From Candidatus Heimdallarchaeota archaeon (GTDB lineage: Archaea; Asgardarchaeota; Heimdallarchaeia; JABLTI01), in assembly GCA_030614005.1 (NCBI GenBank), contig JAUWKS010000094.1, positions 1-10,403 on the forward strand: a stretch of 10,403 bases of DNA, given 5' to 3'. Position 1 is the first letter of the stretch. Every line of letters begins with the position of its first letter. A program made the position numbers and the translations under genes. The notes below the pieces were generated by a model. It ran no database searches. It had not been told where the DNA came from and saw only the letters and a program-made list of their open reading frames with translations. Of the stretch, positions 1,361 through 10,403 are shown in pieces.

Positions 1361-1429
1361 GTAGAATCTCTGCAATCACTTCTTCTTTAAGGTCTAGAAG
1401 TCCATTTCGGTAATGACACGCTTAGGTGG
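1361..1429 (+). repeat. Cassette-boundary repeat R1 (degenerate left arm, near-consensus right arm)
   Basis: gtagaatctctgcaatcacttcttctttaaggtctagaagtccatttcggtaatgacacgcttaggtgg aligns to R2-R4 and R7. Confidence 0.95.
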
Positions 1430-1464
1430 GAAGAATAAACTGAAAAAACATCTAAAGTATATTT

Positions 1465-1483
1465 ACCATCAATGGTTTTATAT
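1465..1483 (+). promoter_or_regulatory. Putative archaeal promoter of the MNT-HEPN operon (palindrome ACCATCAATGGT overlapping TATA-like TTTTATAT)
   Basis: ACCAT-CA-ATGGT at 1465-1476; TTTTATAT at 1476-1483, about 38 nt before ATG 1521. Confidence 0.5.
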
Positions 1484-1520
1484 TAGTAAGAGAAAATATA
1501 TGAATAACAGATGAGAAACA

Positions 1521-1841
1521 ATGAATGCGAAAGTGAAAAAACTTGTTCAGGAAATAAAAGCATACACAATGCGAGTTTATGGGGAAAAAATAAAGCAAGT
1601 ATTACTCTATGGTTCCCATGCTAGAAAAACTGCCACTCCTGAATCTGATATTGATTTACTTATAATTGTTGAAGAATCATTAGATCCTTTTGAAGTTAGA
1701 AGTCAGCTTAGTGACATCCTTTGGGATTTATTCATTGATACAGGAGAATTCATCTCAGTTGTGGTATTACCTGAAGAGTTTTTCATGAATTATAACTCAT
1801 CTTTTATTTTGAATGTAAAAGAAGAAGGTATAGTTATATGA
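1521..1841 (+). CDS. Minimal nucleotidyltransferase (MNT), putative antitoxin
   Basis: 106 aa; LYGS-HARKTATPES-DID matches the GSx10DxD motif; ATGA overlap with the downstream HEPN gene. Confidence 0.92.
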   Translation: MNAKVKKLVQEIKAYTMRVYGEKIKQVLLYGSHARKTATPESDIDLLIIVEESLDPFEVRSQLSDILWDLFIDTGEFISVVVLPEEFFMNYNSSFILNVKEEGIVI

Positions 1842-2221
1842 ATGAGATAACCAATTCAATTAAGAAAGCTGAGAAATTCTTACAGACAGCTGAATTGGTT
1901 CTAGAGCATGGAGATTTTGATACGTGTGTTTCGAGATGTTATTATGCAATGTACTATCTTGCAGAAGCTGTTCTTCTAACTGAAGAAATCAAAACCAGCT
2001 CCCATAAAGGAGTCATTAGTTCCTTTGGTCAATATTTTATTAAAACAGGTGTTTTTGACAGAGAGTTAGGAAAAGCAATCAATGAAGCTTATGATAAACG
2101 ATTGTATGGGGATTACTCTATTGGATTTGCTATAACTAAACCTAAAGCCGAAAAACAACTCAAAGTAGCAAAGGAATTTGTTGCAGAGCTGAAGGAATAT
2201 CTTGAGGAAAAATCAATATAA
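1838..2221 (+). CDS. HEPN-domain protein (UPF0332-like), putative toxin
   Basis: 127 aa; 'GDFDTCVSRCYYAMYY', 'SHKGVISSFGQYF' and 'RLYGDY' (Rx4Y) are typical of small HEPN proteins paired with MNT. Confidence 0.9.
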   Translation: MNEITNSIKKAEKFLQTAELVLEHGDFDTCVSRCYYAMYYLAEAVLLTEEIKTSSHKGVISSFGQYFIKTGVFDRELGKAINEAYDKRLYGDYSIGFAITKPKAEKQLKVAKEFVAELKEYLEEKSI

Positions 2222-2287
2222 AATCTACGACCCTCGCTTCTTCTGGTAGGTCTAGAAGTCCATTTCGGTAAGGACACGCATAGGTGG
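2218..2287 (+). repeat. Cassette-boundary repeat R2 (overlaps HEPN stop codon)
   Basis: ataaaatctacgaccctcgcttcttctggtaggtctagaagtccatttcggtaaggacacgcataggtgg; 2228-2274 matches R3 3111-3157 at 45/47 nt. Confidence 0.97.
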
Positions 2288-2386
2288 AAAGTACACATTG
2301 ACTGAGTATTTCGTTCCATAAAATTGAATTAAACTTTGAAGTCTAGATATTAAGTTCCTAATGAATAACAAAAAGGCAAAAAATTA

Positions 2387-2794
2387 TTATGCCCTATAAG
2401 GAACAATCTTCAAATTTTGAATGCGTTCAAAATGCTTTACATTTGCAGTAAGAACAGGAAAATCTAATGATAGAGCAATAGCTGCTATAGCGGTATCAGC
2501 AAAACCTATGTCAGAGCCTTTATCAACTAATTCTGCACGCAAAGTTCCAAATAATCGAGAATGGGCAAGGGAAAAGTCCAGTACTTGGAGTGAGTTGATG
2601 AAATTATCAAGCTTCAATAAACGTGATTCATGCCATATTCTTCGTTTCGCACCGAAAAATAATTCTGAAGTAGAGATAACAGTAGTAATGATATAATAAC
2701 CATCGGTGATAATCTCAGCTATAGTTTTCTTAGCTGATGGTTTACCAGCTAAAATATCGGATAGAAAATTGGTATCAGCTATAATTGGTTGCAT
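2387..2794 (-). CDS. vapC: PIN-domain VapC-family toxin
   Basis: IIADTN, ISTSELFFG, DTAIAAIA and LTANVKHF PIN motifs. The ORF track starts at 2803, but ATG 2794 overlaps the antitoxin stop (TAATG) and is the likelier start. Confidence 0.92.
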   Translation of the reverse strand: MQPIIADTNFLSDILAGKPSAKKTIAEIITDGYYIITTVISTSELFFGAKRRIWHESRLLKLDNFINSLQVLDFSLAHSRLFGTLRAELVDKGSDIGFADTAIAAIALSLDFPVLTANVKHFERIQNLKIVPYRA

Positions 2795-8799: not shown

Positions 8800-8839
8800 A
8801 GGGCTAGAAGTCCAGTTCGGTAAGGACACGCTTAGGTAG
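8770..8839 (+). repeat. Cassette-boundary repeat R7 (left arm degenerate and coding)
   Basis: ..gaccttctcgtcttcttgaagggctagaagtccagttcggtaaggacacgcttaggtag; ungapped alignment to the consensus. Confidence 0.93.
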
Positions 8840-8933
8840 TAAATATTTGGACACCATAACCATTAAATAGATTATTGTGATTAAGTATGCTACCCGTATA
8901 ATAAATCCATCCGGGAAAATTGGAGAAATGTTA

Positions 8934-10289
8934 ATGAAAAATCAATTATTAATACCTTTAATAGCGGTAGGACTAATAGGGCTTATTGGAACTTCTTCTA
9001 TGATAAGTTTGGTAGTTATTAAACAGAATAATATCAAAGAAATGGATACTCAATTTAGTGATTTATCATCAGAATATGAAACACTATTAGCAGAATTCGT
9101 TAATATTACAGAATGTTATGACGGTTTGATTGATGACTACCAAAATCTCACAGAGAATTATGAAGTGACCATAGCAATTTATAATATATTACTAGAAAAT
9201 AATTCAGATTTGCAAGAAGAATTAGATGACCTTCAAGCGACTTATGATAACCTAGTATTAAATTATAATGATCTTTTAGAAGATTATGATTTATTACTAA
9301 CATCATTTAACAATCTACAAGAAGATTACAATAGCCTTCAAGATGAATACGATGATCTAGAATTTGATTATAATCAACTGGATGAAATGTATCAAAATCT
9401 AAATGAAGCATATGTAAATTTACAAGAGGATTATAGTTTATTGCAAACTAATTATAATACATTACAAAACGATTTTGATGCACTTACTTTACAATACAAT
9501 GATCTTCTAGATTCATATAATGATGTTTCTAATGCTCTTGATATGTTTTTAGATTTTATTATAAATGAACTACCTATGGCACAAAAGATGGCATTTTATT
9601 ATCAATTTGTTAGAAATGCTGAACCTGAATGGTGGAGTTATGATGAAATGTTAATTTTTGCAGAAAAATTAATCTTACATTCGATATCTGAATATAATCC
9701 ATTTACCTCTGTAGATGCAATTTTAAACGTTTACAATTTCTTTGAAAATAGTTCAATGGAAGATAATTATAATACAATAATAAATGTATTTGGAGATTTT
9801 TACCCCTACTGGGATTCCAGTGCATCTCTTCAAACGATTCAAAATTGGATTACTGAAAATTTAGATTATATATATGATTCAGTTACAACTTGGAATCGAA
9901 ATTATGATAATGATTTCTTCCAAAGTCCTCTTGAAACAATAATGTATAGAGGTGGAGATTGTGATGATTATGCAATTACATCATGTGCAATGTTTGAAAT
10001 GCAAGGATGGGAAACAGCCATGGGGGGTATATTTGACCCAGAACATGGTCTTTATGGATCCTTTGGGCATGCATTCCTTTTTGTCAATGTTGGAGAAGAT
10101 GCATATACTTCAACAATTCATTGGCACATTGGTGGAGGACCAGCTGGTTATCCTTGGATACCAGTAGACACTCTATGGTGTGAAACGATAGGAGATACTC
10201 CTGCATGGTTACAATGGTATTACGATTTTGGAGATGCAACTTGGATAGCAGACCATATCCATATAGAAATTGTAGATGGAATATTCTAA
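8934..10289 (+). CDS. Membrane-anchored coiled-coil protein with C-terminal transglutaminase-like (C93/BTLCP-like) cysteine-protease domain
   Basis: N-terminal TM; 23 heptads; SPLETIMYRGGDCDDYAI (Cys), GHAFLFV (His), WIPVD (Asp). ATG 8934 (or 8928) follows GGAG; the ORF track start is GTG 8877. Confidence 0.85.
   Translation: MKNQLLIPLIAVGLIGLIGTSSMISLVVIKQNNIKEMDTQFSDLSSEYETLLAEFVNITECYDGLIDDYQNLTENYEVTIAIYNILLENNSDLQEELDDLQATYDNLVLNYNDLLEDYDLLLTSFNNLQEDYNSLQDEYDDLEFDYNQLDEMYQNLNEAYVNLQEDYSLLQTNYNTLQNDFDALTLQYNDLLDSYNDVSNALDMFLDFIINELPMAQKMAFYYQFVRNAEPEWWSYDEMLIFAEKLILHSISEYNPFTSVDAILNVYNFFENSSMEDNYNTIINVFGDFYPYWDSSASLQTIQNWITENLDYIYDSVTTWNRNYDNDFFQSPLETIMYRGGDCDDYAITSCAMFEMQGWETAMGGIFDPEHGLYGSFGHAFLFVNVGEDAYTSTIHWHIGGGPAGYPWIPVDTLWCETIGDTPAWLQWYYDFGDATWIADHIHIEIVDGIF
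9060..9542 (+). repeat. Coding heptad repeat (23 x 7 aa, xLxxxYx)
   Basis: DLSSEYE...DVSNALD in unbroken register. Confidence 0.9.
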
Positions 10290-10292
10290 CAA

Positions 10293-10310
10293 TTTCATTT
10301 TTTCCTTTTT
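10293..10310 (+). terminator. Putative T-tract terminator
   Basis: tttcatttttttccttttt-like T-rich tract directly after the stop at 10289. Confidence 0.5.
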
Positions 10311-10347
10311 CCAATCAGTTAACCCTAGTCTCACCTGAGACTGTGGG
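10303..10347. repeat. Upstream hairpin module, copy B
   Basis: AGTCTCA-CC-TGAGACT is a perfect inverted repeat (10327-10342), flanked by CCT/GGG; homologous to 4686-4730. Confidence 0.8.
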
Positions 10348-10366
10348 AATAAGAAAAATAAAAAAT

Positions 10367-10403
10367 GTAGAATCTACAACACTCGCTTCTTCAAGGTTTA
10401 GAA
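10367..10403 (+). repeat. Cassette-boundary repeat R8 (truncated by window end)
   Basis: gtagaatctacaacactcgcttcttcaaggtttagaa; 3-nt deletion relative to the consensus. Confidence 0.9.

Follow-up and report, generated by a model that had tools for sequence, protein, structure and literature searches.

A probable array of mobile gene cassettes bounded by copies of the 23S rRNA trailer in a Candidatus Heimdallarchaeota genome

We consider it probable that the window, by which we mean the whole 10,403-nucleotide stretch analysed (the entire contig C102), is an array of at least seven mobile gene cassettes that were inserted directionally and site-specifically by an enzyme acting in trans. The repeat that bounds the cassettes is a copy of the 3' tail of 23S rRNA together with a strand of its processing stem. 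A sequence-only reading of this DNA had proposed a platform for cassette capture and shuffling that uses a site different from that of integrons and an enzyme encoded elsewhere; the proposal is supported by our analysis and survived each refutation test that could be run. We found no published description of these arrays.

Repeat copies in the window

Eight copies of the repeat on one strand had been claimed. Seven of them stand, all on a single strand, while the eighth, at 6857, aligns poorly and has no match to a profile of 124 copies, even when the threshold is relaxed to E<=50 and the filters are disabled; the spacings of 2085 and 1153 nt reported for the array both depend on this copy and are therefore wrong. 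In nhmmer searches, the other six copies have genome-wide E values of 1e-18 to 1e-46, compared to 2e-6 for the half copy. The copies and their support are as follows.

10303-10403, minus strand: repeat copy, long form (nhmmer, profile positions 134-254, E 2e-20; match to the native 23S trailer)
8776-8848, minus strand: repeat copy, short form (nhmmer, E 3e-18; alignment)
7997-8039, minus strand: half copy (nhmmer, profile positions 144-204, E 2e-6; alignment)
5510-5578, minus strand: distal-only remnant, the T-run and hairpin-like part (nhmmer with the 124-copy profile, E 3e-4; alignment)
4670-4859, minus strand: repeat copy, long form of ~190 nt (nhmmer, E 7e-46)
3087-3183, minus strand: repeat copy (nhmmer, E 2e-19; alignment)
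2209-2316, minus strand: repeat copy (nhmmer, E 1.5e-28)
1338-1453, minus strand: repeat copy, the last on the contig (nhmmer, E 9e-26)

The long form at 4670-4859 contains the 23S tail, the core, the stem strand, the T-run, the hairpin and a second core-like motif, and is 85% identical to the native trailer over 185 nt. The contig ends within the copy at 10303-10403, precisely where the left edge of the conserved core lies, and the distal part of this copy carries the trailer hairpin motif. Of the core, the half copy has lost the left half; it has also lost the 23S tail and keeps AAGAAGAAG and the distal part. The 23S-tail part of the last copy, at 1338-1453, is native-like, with 92% identity to the trailer of its own genome. 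The remnant at 5510-5578 had been overlooked in the sequence-only reading; in the alignment, genome G010 has a full copy at the matching place. No Rfam family covers the repeat, and the two sub-threshold snoRNA matches that a scan of the window at E<=1 returned were taken as chance. No tRNA genes were found within the window or at the other repeat loci of this genome.

The repeat copies the end of the 23S rRNA gene

In reverse complement, the repeat comprises the last ~20 nt of 23S rRNA, the 3' strand of the 23S processing stem and an oligo-T run. On the minus strand of the window the elements follow one another as the last ~20 nt of 23S rRNA, the 3' strand of the stem, the core and a variable distal part that ends in oligo-T. 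On contig C95, where Rfam identifies the LSU rRNA with 2542 bits, the native copy overlaps the 3' end of this RNA and pairs with the 23S leader, the pairing being the processing stem (cofold -56.5 kcal/mol). The core is a conserved stretch of 22-27 nt, CTTCTAGACCTTMAAGAAGAAG. The motif AAGAAGAAG is almost invariant (86-100% conserved) and is intact even in copies whose 23S-tail part has decayed. By eye, the only inverted repeat in the 27-nt conserved block is one of 5 bp (CTTCT...AGAAG) with a spacer of 9 or 12 nt, depending on which AGAAG is chosen, and dyad symmetry of the tyrosine-recombinase kind is not obvious in the profile consensus. A reading of the repeat as a gene start (MTRLGGK...) was given up because the extended match turned out to be 23S rRNA. 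It was also considered whether C102 directly adjoins a second 23S copy, and this was not established; several long copies elsewhere start at the same profile position. The identity of the repeat with the 23S tail and stem had been missed in the sequence-only reading, as had the fact that arrays start at the 23S gene in some genomes.

Arrays are clustered and widespread in the genus

A scan of the whole genome had been suggested as a check, and it showed the repeat to be clustered rather than spread among housekeeping operons. The 3.62-Mb assembly holds 20 copies on 6 of its 126 contigs, and 7 of the 20 lie on the 10.4-kb window contig, a clustering far beyond chance. Similar arrays are present in nine of ten congeners and on 47 metagenome contigs. 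Genus and metagenome loci together contain 248 copies, spaced at a median of 1440 nt, and copies are co-oriented in 51 of the 54 loci that have more than one. Spacings are wider, at 5-12 kb, in the arrays of G010. In three cases (G000:C95, G005:C98 and metagenome locus L041) the array directly follows the 23S gene. Two observations count against directional cassette insertion as proposed here: some arrays (G000:C71, G009:C61) are remote from rRNA genes, and in one congener the 6 kb that follow the 23S gene contain no copy. Complete genomes from a different family of the same class served as a control and have one copy of the 23S trailer each. The 47 JGI metagenome loci contain almost no close matches to the window cassettes, and thus no population-level rearrangements can be read there.

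Cassettes carry unrelated cargo and change neighbours

The gene and Pfam map bears out the claim that repeat copies sit at boundaries between unrelated blocks of one to three genes, whatever the orientation of the genes. The window cassettes span 0.7-3.2 kb and encode toxin-antitoxin pairs, surface proteins and enzymes.

8877-10289, plus strand, antisense to the repeat: cassette A, a 470-aa coiled-coil protein with a transglutaminase-like domain (Pfam DUF553/Transglut_core)
8143-8799, plus strand: cassette B, a 218-aa membrane protein without a Pfam family
5574-7952, minus strand: cassette C, an APH-family kinase-like gene (6918-7952) and a membrane M28 peptidase (5574-6803), both by Pfam
4851-5466, minus strand: cassette D, DUF433 (5227-5466) and DUF5615 (4851-5237), a toxin-antitoxin-type pair (Pfam)
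3200-4309, minus strand: cassette E, a 369-aa leucine-rich-repeat protein with a Cys-rich C-terminus (Pfam LRR_8/LRR_4)
2387-3015, minus strand: cassette F, a VapB-like antitoxin (2794-3015) and a PIN/VapC toxin (2387-2803), both by Pfam
1521-2221, plus strand, antisense to the repeat: cassette G, an MNT nucleotidyltransferase (1521-1841) and HEPN (1838-2221) pair (Pfam)
83-1266, minus strand: two membrane-anchored genes past the last copy, reaching the contig end

The final codons of cassette B extend into the repeat copy at 8776-8848. No repeat lies between the two genes of cassette C, as there is no profile match near 6857. Of the two genes past the last copy, that at 718-1266 has an LVIVD repeat (Pfam) and that at 83-601 has no Pfam family; LVIVD proteins are array cargo elsewhere too.

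Homologues of cassette A are found in a G005 array, and those of cassettes B and E in arrays of both G010 and G005. Three toxin-antitoxin-type cassettes recur at 78-92% identity among unrelated neighbours: the MNT-HEPN cassette in G010:C33 and G010:C28 (87-91%), the DUF433-DUF5615 cassette in two G010 arrays (92%) and the VapBC cassette between two repeats in G005:C75 (78%). Cassette order, for which a comparison across strains had been advised, is therefore not fixed. In a comparison of 133 copies, the upstream flank alone is common to 42 pairs and the downstream flank alone to 25, and no pair has both flanks in common, with the qualification that copy pairs are phylogenetically non-independent, so that these counts overstate significance. 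Overall, gene orientation relative to the repeat is unbiased (166 same compared to 136 opposite), which differs from integrons, where cassette ORFs are expected to be mostly co-oriented with the array. Of 52 pairs of homologous cassette genes (>=70% identity), by comparison, 51 agree in their orientation relative to the repeat. Because the same blocks have different neighbours in related genomes, the behaviour of the region is like that of an integron with another kind of site.

Public sequence data were also searched. Parts of the window occur in 19 runs, all as short contigs, and none of the runs is listed as RNA. In four public runs, skips and back-joints relative to the window fall solely between repeat copies, with short sides of 20-39 nt; these are indistinguishable from cross-mapping of other copies and are thus uninterpretable. 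In contigs of run X6 the match to the window ends at ~5549 and ~6880, which hints at other neighbours of the M28 gene and was counted neither way.

A sharp joint divides each copy

Within the copies, the joint can be placed to within about 12 nt, just after AAGAAGAAG. Sequence to the right of the joint is inherited with the downstream cassette: pairs of copies with a common downstream cassette have an identity of 0.87 in the distal part, compared to a background of 0.63, and are at or below background to the left of the core. Left of the joint, the extent of the 23S tail is common to copies with the same upstream cassette, a linkage that is weak after native-native pairs are removed. Native trailers tell a similar story, being identical up to AAGAAGAAG in at least eight populations and then splitting into classes that are also found in cassettes. 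In G005, the leader retains its strand of the outer stem, and a different sequence has taken the place of the trailer partner. Five independent cassette families, as well as native trailers, show the joint to be sharp.

These observations decide against a REP/MITE-like selfish repeat that inserts into the intergenic DNA of an accessory island, in which case the cassettes would be illusory. Such a reading had been offered as the alternative, and the repeat is indeed short, non-coding, intergenic and multi-copy. It fails because each copy is made of two parts that differ in their history: the distal one co-varies with the genes downstream and moves with their cassette. Homologous genes are also fixed in orientation to the repeat. 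Furthermore, the copies are strictly co-oriented and form neither a hairpin nor terminal inverted repeats, a search of this 90%-complete genome gave no Y1/HUH transposase, and no pair of copies shows a conserved gene adjacency with and without the repeat. None of the marks of a REP/MITE family, namely a palindrome or inverted repeats, a cognate transposase and dispersed copies, was found, and we regard this explanation as very improbable. Repeat duplication of the Cas1 type, as in CRISPR adaptation, was rejected because the distal part moves together with the cassette downstream of it and because the arrays have no canonical Cas1 genes in their vicinity.

General homologous recombination of the RadA type is a stronger competitor, and one that we nonetheless consider unlikely. 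Here no dedicated enzyme would be involved, and duplicated 23S trailers would serve as portable homology: at any pair of aligned copies, a cassette could loop out and later return, or be swapped following the uptake of DNA. Similarity between copies extends over 60-190 nt, the arrays have no recombinase gene close by, and some 23S-tail parts look homogenized to the native sequence: that of 1338-1453 is native-like, whereas the copies at orthologous cassettes in G010 are decayed. In addition, the core is the longest uninterrupted identity between copies, and therefore crossovers would concentrate there anyway. Yet decayed copies keep only ~12-17 nt around AAGAAGAAG, and their cassettes have spread; judging from established minimal-homology requirements, 12-17 nt is too short for efficient strand exchange. 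The sharpness of the joint across cassette families and native trailers also speaks against homologous recombination, which leaves the retention of the core amid decaying flanks unexplained.

The repeat is not attC and no recombinase adjoins the arrays

The repeat had been described as non-attC, and this was confirmed. The RYYYAAC and GTTRRRY boxes are absent from both strands of the core and flanks, as read from the profile consensus and alignments, and no attC-like fold was found. When five copies were folded as DNA on both strands, nine of the ten z-scores were between -0.46 and +1.3; the tenth, for the minus strand of 3096-3186, was -1.6, and none of the folds is a long imperfect attC hairpin. 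The consensus fold of 15 copies is a single 5-bp hairpin without covariation.

The sequence-only reading had recommended looking for a recombinase or HUH gene at the array end; no recombinase gene was found in or beside any of the arrays examined, which counts against site-specific insertion. Tyrosine (PF00589), SSV-type (PF16795) and serine integrases were absent from the array contigs of five genomes, which are fragmented MAGs. The same PF00589 search revealed no IntI beside the arrays, a result that leaves its absence from the organism unproven given the fragmented assemblies. The sole PF00589 match in this genome is XerA-like, on contig C58, and neither HUH/RAYT (PF01797) nor a serine recombinase was found in the 90% of the genome that is covered. 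The commonest array protein, a family of ~314 aa with 15 members, was considered as the enzyme; it has no Pfam family and gave no Atlas lead, and it occurs in both orientations relative to the array and was treated as cargo. Other recurrent array families (DUF1877, LVIVD, TPR, beta-lactamase-like and ABC ATPase) were also read as cargo.

Direct repeats that copy the 3' end of a stable-RNA gene, which is restored upon insertion, are a hallmark of integrative elements. The repeats of the window are direct copies of this kind, and in several genomes the arrays begin at the intact 23S gene. One could therefore suppose that once-complete elements, such as plasmids or viruses with their own integrase, accreted in tandem at the 23S 3' end and decayed to small integrase-less remnants between att repeats, perhaps mobilizable in trans; the wider spacings in G010 would fit. 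Against this, no integrase of any array element or related autonomous element emerged from the array contigs of five genomes, the recurrent proteins or a scan of viral contigs. The viral scan with the core gave one 24-nt match, in a coding region of a 42%-GC contig and without extended similarity, that was judged irrelevant. Moreover, the units are mostly 0.7-3 kb, hold one to three genes and recur intact, which is not expected of random decay. We consider accretion followed by decay improbable.

A proposed mechanism

For the cassette array itself, we propose that cassettes exist, at least transiently, as circles that each carry one complete trailer-like site. Site-specific recombination at the core, by an enzyme acting in trans, would insert a circle in a fixed direction (Campbell-type), either at the native 23S trailer or at any copy already present. 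Insertion would spare the 23S gene and the inner processing stem, so that only the outer part of the trailer is swapped. More broadly, and tentatively, this may be an archaeal form of cassette capture that is mechanistically distinct from integrons, in which an enzyme recognizes a double-strand core of ~25 bp in the 23S processing-stem region and both integrates circular cassettes and cuts them out, at that place and at all earlier copies. The end of the rRNA gene would then be the landing pad of a genus-wide, horizontally exchanged accessory pool. Candidates for the enzyme are a repurposed XerA or a new family of recombinase or nuclease.

Asgard archaea are the closest relatives of eukaryotes. 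If the mechanism is confirmed, it would represent a second, independent solution to cassette capture and would explain part of the large, fluid Asgard accessory genome. A defined site of ~25 bp and a precise joint would help in finding the enzyme, and could provide a gene-insertion tool for Asgard organisms, which are hard to manipulate.

Comparison with known systems

Integrons are the textbook bacterial device for collecting and shuffling accessory genes. Their attC sites are imperfect single-strand hairpins (R''-L''...L'-R') with RYYYAAC and GTTRRRY end boxes. Like integron arrays, above all those of sedentary chromosomal integrons and of the integrase-less clusters (CALINs), the arrays described here are long and one-directional, with cassettes of one to three genes and many toxin-antitoxin pairs. 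In both, sites within one genome are similar, cassettes change places between arrays and between genomes, each joint combines halves from different cassettes into a hybrid, and most arrays have no integrase nearby. In contrast, the site here is a conserved double-strand sequence from the 23S trailer, with no hairpin, boxes or covariation; there is no bias in gene orientation, no IntI was found, and the equivalent of attI is the end of the rRNA gene. Only attC-type integrons have been reported so far in archaea, among them integron cassette arrays in Asgard archaea (Ghaly et al. 2022, PMC9668308).

Elements at tRNA and tmRNA 3' ends also resemble these arrays in that direct repeats copy the 3' end of a stable RNA and the insert replaces the displaced 3' part. 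The likeness extends to the CIMEs of streptococci, which are integrase-less units flanked by att sites and mobilized in trans, and to tandem accretion, in which units are stacked in one orientation starting at an intact gene. Unlike the tRNA and tmRNA elements, the target here is the 23S tail and processing stem, the cassettes are tiny and number dozens per genome, arrays also occupy secondary loci far from the rRNA gene, and no integrase was found.

The pdif modules of Acinetobacter plasmids are Xer-dependent and are bounded by 28-bp, dyad-symmetric XerC/XerD sites in alternating orientation; a site of the Xer/dif type consists of 28 bp, with two inverted arms of ~11 bp around a spacer of 6-8 bp. 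The cassettes described here are likewise small, often encode toxin-antitoxin pairs and are bounded by short conserved sites. The recombinase of pdif modules is encoded by the host outside the module, and the sole tyrosine recombinase found here is Xer-like. Unlike pdif sites, those of the arrays are all direct, lack obvious dyad symmetry and derive from the rRNA trailer. What the arrays show is integron-like behaviour at the population level with a different site, tied to an essential rRNA gene, and without the integron enzyme.

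Repeat copies and cassettes in the window

Repeat search and alignment of the eight sites proposed in the sequence-only reading identified a single repeat family, with all copies on one strand. Copies were called in two rounds of nhmmer, the first using a seed profile and the second a profile derived from 124 copies. Seven of the eight same-strand copies that had been claimed were detected; the proposed site at 6857 gave no match to the 124-copy profile, even at E<=50. The window is contig C102 in full (10,403 nt), and the assembly that holds it comprises 3.62 Mb in 126 contigs, with 33.5% GC. 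Its Arf-family GTPases and RING proteins identify the organism as an Asgard archaeon.

Repeat copies called by nhmmer in the window
1338-1453, minus strand, repeat copy
2209-2316, minus strand, repeat copy
3087-3183, minus strand, repeat copy
4670-4859, minus strand, repeat copy
5510-5578, minus strand, distal-only repeat remnant
7997-8039, minus strand, repeat half copy
8776-8848, minus strand, repeat copy
10303-10403, minus strand, repeat copy interrupted by the contig end

The blocks between copies, which we call cassettes, encode MNT-HEPN, VapBC, an LRR protein, DUF433-DUF5615 together with an M28 peptidase and an APH-like kinase, a membrane protein, and a transglutaminase-like coiled-coil protein. 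The 72-nt tandem repeats at 3782-4221 (families D1 and D4) code for the 24-aa units of the LRR protein and do not belong to the boundary repeat. A box of ~28 nt with the TATA-like TTATAAAAAC is common to 3037-3064, upstream of VapB, and 5501-5528, upstream of DUF433. The box falls within the distal part of the repeat, which is degenerate and is the side of its conserved core that faces the downstream cassette. The distal arm may supply a promoter for same-sense cassettes.

Origin of the repeat

Copies on other contigs reach further on one side, and the additional sequence belongs to the 3' end of the LSU rRNA gene on contig C95 of this genome, G000 (archaeal model Rfam RF02540, 2542 bits). Read on the minus strand of the window, the repeat consists of the last ~20 nt of 23S rRNA; the 3' strand of the processing stem of 23S, base-paired to the 5' leader over its full length (cofold -56.5 kcal/mol); the motif GTAGATTCTAC; and an oligo-T run. 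Long copies alone continue into a small hairpin motif and a second motif that resembles the core. Degenerate in sequence, this second motif (CTTGAAGAAG) closes the long forms in the fetched loci L047 and L080 (~150 nt past the 23S end) and at ~4670-4690 in the window. Because the long forms end in this way, their ~140-nt distal arm may itself be a gene-less mini-cassette.

The repeat is unstructured when folded alone. DNA folds of both strands gave z values of -0.46 to +1.3 in nine of ten cases and -1.6 in the other, the consensus fold of 15 copies was a lone 5-bp hairpin without covariation, and an Rfam search of the repeat returned no match. The earlier description of the sites as non-attC agrees with these folds.

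The 23S rRNA gene itself (C95 25794-29052; 9695-12953 of locus L001) is 3259 nt long, compared to the 2987 positions of the model, and carries an AT-rich insert close to its 3' end. Expansion segments of rRNA occur in Asgard archaea, and the long gene and its insert are consistent with these.

Distribution of the repeat

A profile search of the whole assembly found 20 copies on six contigs.

Repeat copies by contig in this genome
C102 (the window), 7 copies, array
C95, 5 copies: native copy; three co-oriented with it and downstream of the 23S gene; one inverted, upstream
C66, 4 copies
C71, 2 copies, either side of a HicB-like cassette within a 173-kb contig
C112, 1 copy with ~145 nt of 23S tail, adjoining glmS
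C55, 1 copy

The inverted core copy on C95 (20614-20665; L001 4515-4566) lies upstream of the 23S gene at a distance of ~5 kb. The stretch that separates the two differs in length among congeners and contains a winged-helix protein gene and two uncharacterised genes. The lone C112 copy (14835-15009, locus L003) is beside the housekeeping gene glmS in a locus without an rRNA gene, and may be a secondary landing site.

Multiple copies were present in nine of ten congeners, and the same probe found none in other genera of the class. As a control, the 23S trailer native to another family was single-copy in that family's complete, Heimdallarchaeum-type genomes, so that multiplication of the trailer is not a general trait. 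A scan of metagenomes with the 27-nt core recovered 124 copies on 47 contigs. All fetched loci together held 248 copies, co-oriented in 51 of the 54 loci with at least two, at a median spacing of 1440 nt (interquartile range 873-2881). Two short metagenome contigs, L066 (1487 nt) and L069 (1321 nt), have two copies just 350-640 nt apart, representing very small or empty cassettes. Arrays directly follow the 23S gene on C95, on contig C98 of the congener G005 and in metagenome locus L041; in another congener, G009, the 6.1 kb that follow the 23S gene hold no copy, yet arrays occur elsewhere.

Cassettes recur with different neighbours

Homologues of nearly all window cassettes occur, differently ordered, in other arrays. 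For example, the MNT-HEPN block recurs with both bounding repeats in two different arrays of the congener G010 (87% and 91% identity). The DUF433-DUF5615 block recurs in two G010 arrays at 92% identity and partially in a third; it has full repeats on both sides in G010, compared to one side reduced to a distal remnant in the window. VapBC recurs in G005 at 78% identity. When 133 copies were compared, 42 pairs had only the upstream flank in common, 25 only the downstream flank, and none both, as expected from the cassette-type shuffling that had been proposed. The commonest single-gene cargo is a diverged ~314-aa family without a Pfam or Atlas match (15 members, including L042:1914-2918, L010:13655-14614 and L007:3412-4344).

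Between homologous cassette genes, direction with respect to the repeat is the same in 51 of 52 pairs that are >=70% identical and in 26 of 28 that are 40-70% identical. Over all genes, the two orientations are nearly even (166 same, 136 opposite). These results fit units that travel together with their own site in a fixed direction. Such movement is contrary to a MITE-like repeat that inserts independently, an alternative that fits poorly; the REP/MITE-like option raised by the sequence-only reading is disfavoured by the recurrence, flank and orientation results alike. Decayed full-size integrative elements also fit poorly.

Position of the joint

The best-conserved stretch of the repeat is GGACTTCTAGACCTTAAAGAAGAAG, inside which AAGAAGAAG is 86-100% conserved. 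Pairs of copies with a common downstream cassette had a post-core identity of 0.87, compared to a background of 0.63, and were at or below background left of the core. Row-by-row inspection of five independent cassette families showed that cassette-specific variants start directly after AAGAAGAAG. Copies with a common upstream cassette have the same extent of 23S-like part, and close paralogues also have the same specific variants; this link to the upstream cassette is statistically weak. A few copies lack any 23S tail and start sharply at TTCTAG.

In at least eight populations the native trailers do not differ as far as AAGAAGAAG; past it they divide into the classes that cassette-borne distal parts also form. 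In G005, the 23S leader retains the outer-stem strand GTAGAAGGCC and its trailer partner has been replaced, suggesting that insertion has made a hybrid of the native site as well. Insertion just after AAGAAGAAG would disrupt neither the rRNA nor the inner processing stem.

In the best-supported model, cassette circles would insert and excise directionally by a Campbell-type mechanism. A circle would bring a single complete trailer-like site, crossover would take place directly behind AAGAAGAAG within the conserved core, and a putative enzyme would act in trans. General homologous recombination between copies is the chief rival and the less probable reading; against it stand the sharpness of the joint and the decayed yet still-spreading copies that retain just 12-17 nt around the core.

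Search for the enzyme

No recombinase candidate was found inside or beside the arrays, and the recurrent array proteins are cargo. Tyrosine recombinase matches in five genomes were all off the array contigs; the sole match in G000 is XerA-like (C58 19780-20675; L086 1281-2174), in a gene interrupted by the contig end. G000 had no serine recombinase or HUH Y1 transposase, the five genomes searched had no SSV-type integrase, and no canonical Cas1 genes were near arrays. Twelve LAGLIDADG-domain proteins of ~520-550 aa form a multi-copy family in G000 (on C87, C48, C63, C86, C78, C110, C9, C8, C67 and C122), none on repeat-bearing contigs.

Comparison with known systems

In a full-text search of the literature, including papers on Asgard mobile elements, we found no description of arrays of this kind. 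Asgard archaea have been reported to carry integron arrays and CALINs whose attC sites are canonical and folded (PMC9668308). The arrays described here behave like integron arrays and CALINs, but each integron-defining feature that we tested was absent. In the origin of the repeat, the arrays match a second group, the integrative elements that insert into stable RNA genes at their 3' ends and accrete in tandem. Unlike such elements, the arrays have the 23S trailer as target, consist of tiny cassettes and had no integrase that we could find.
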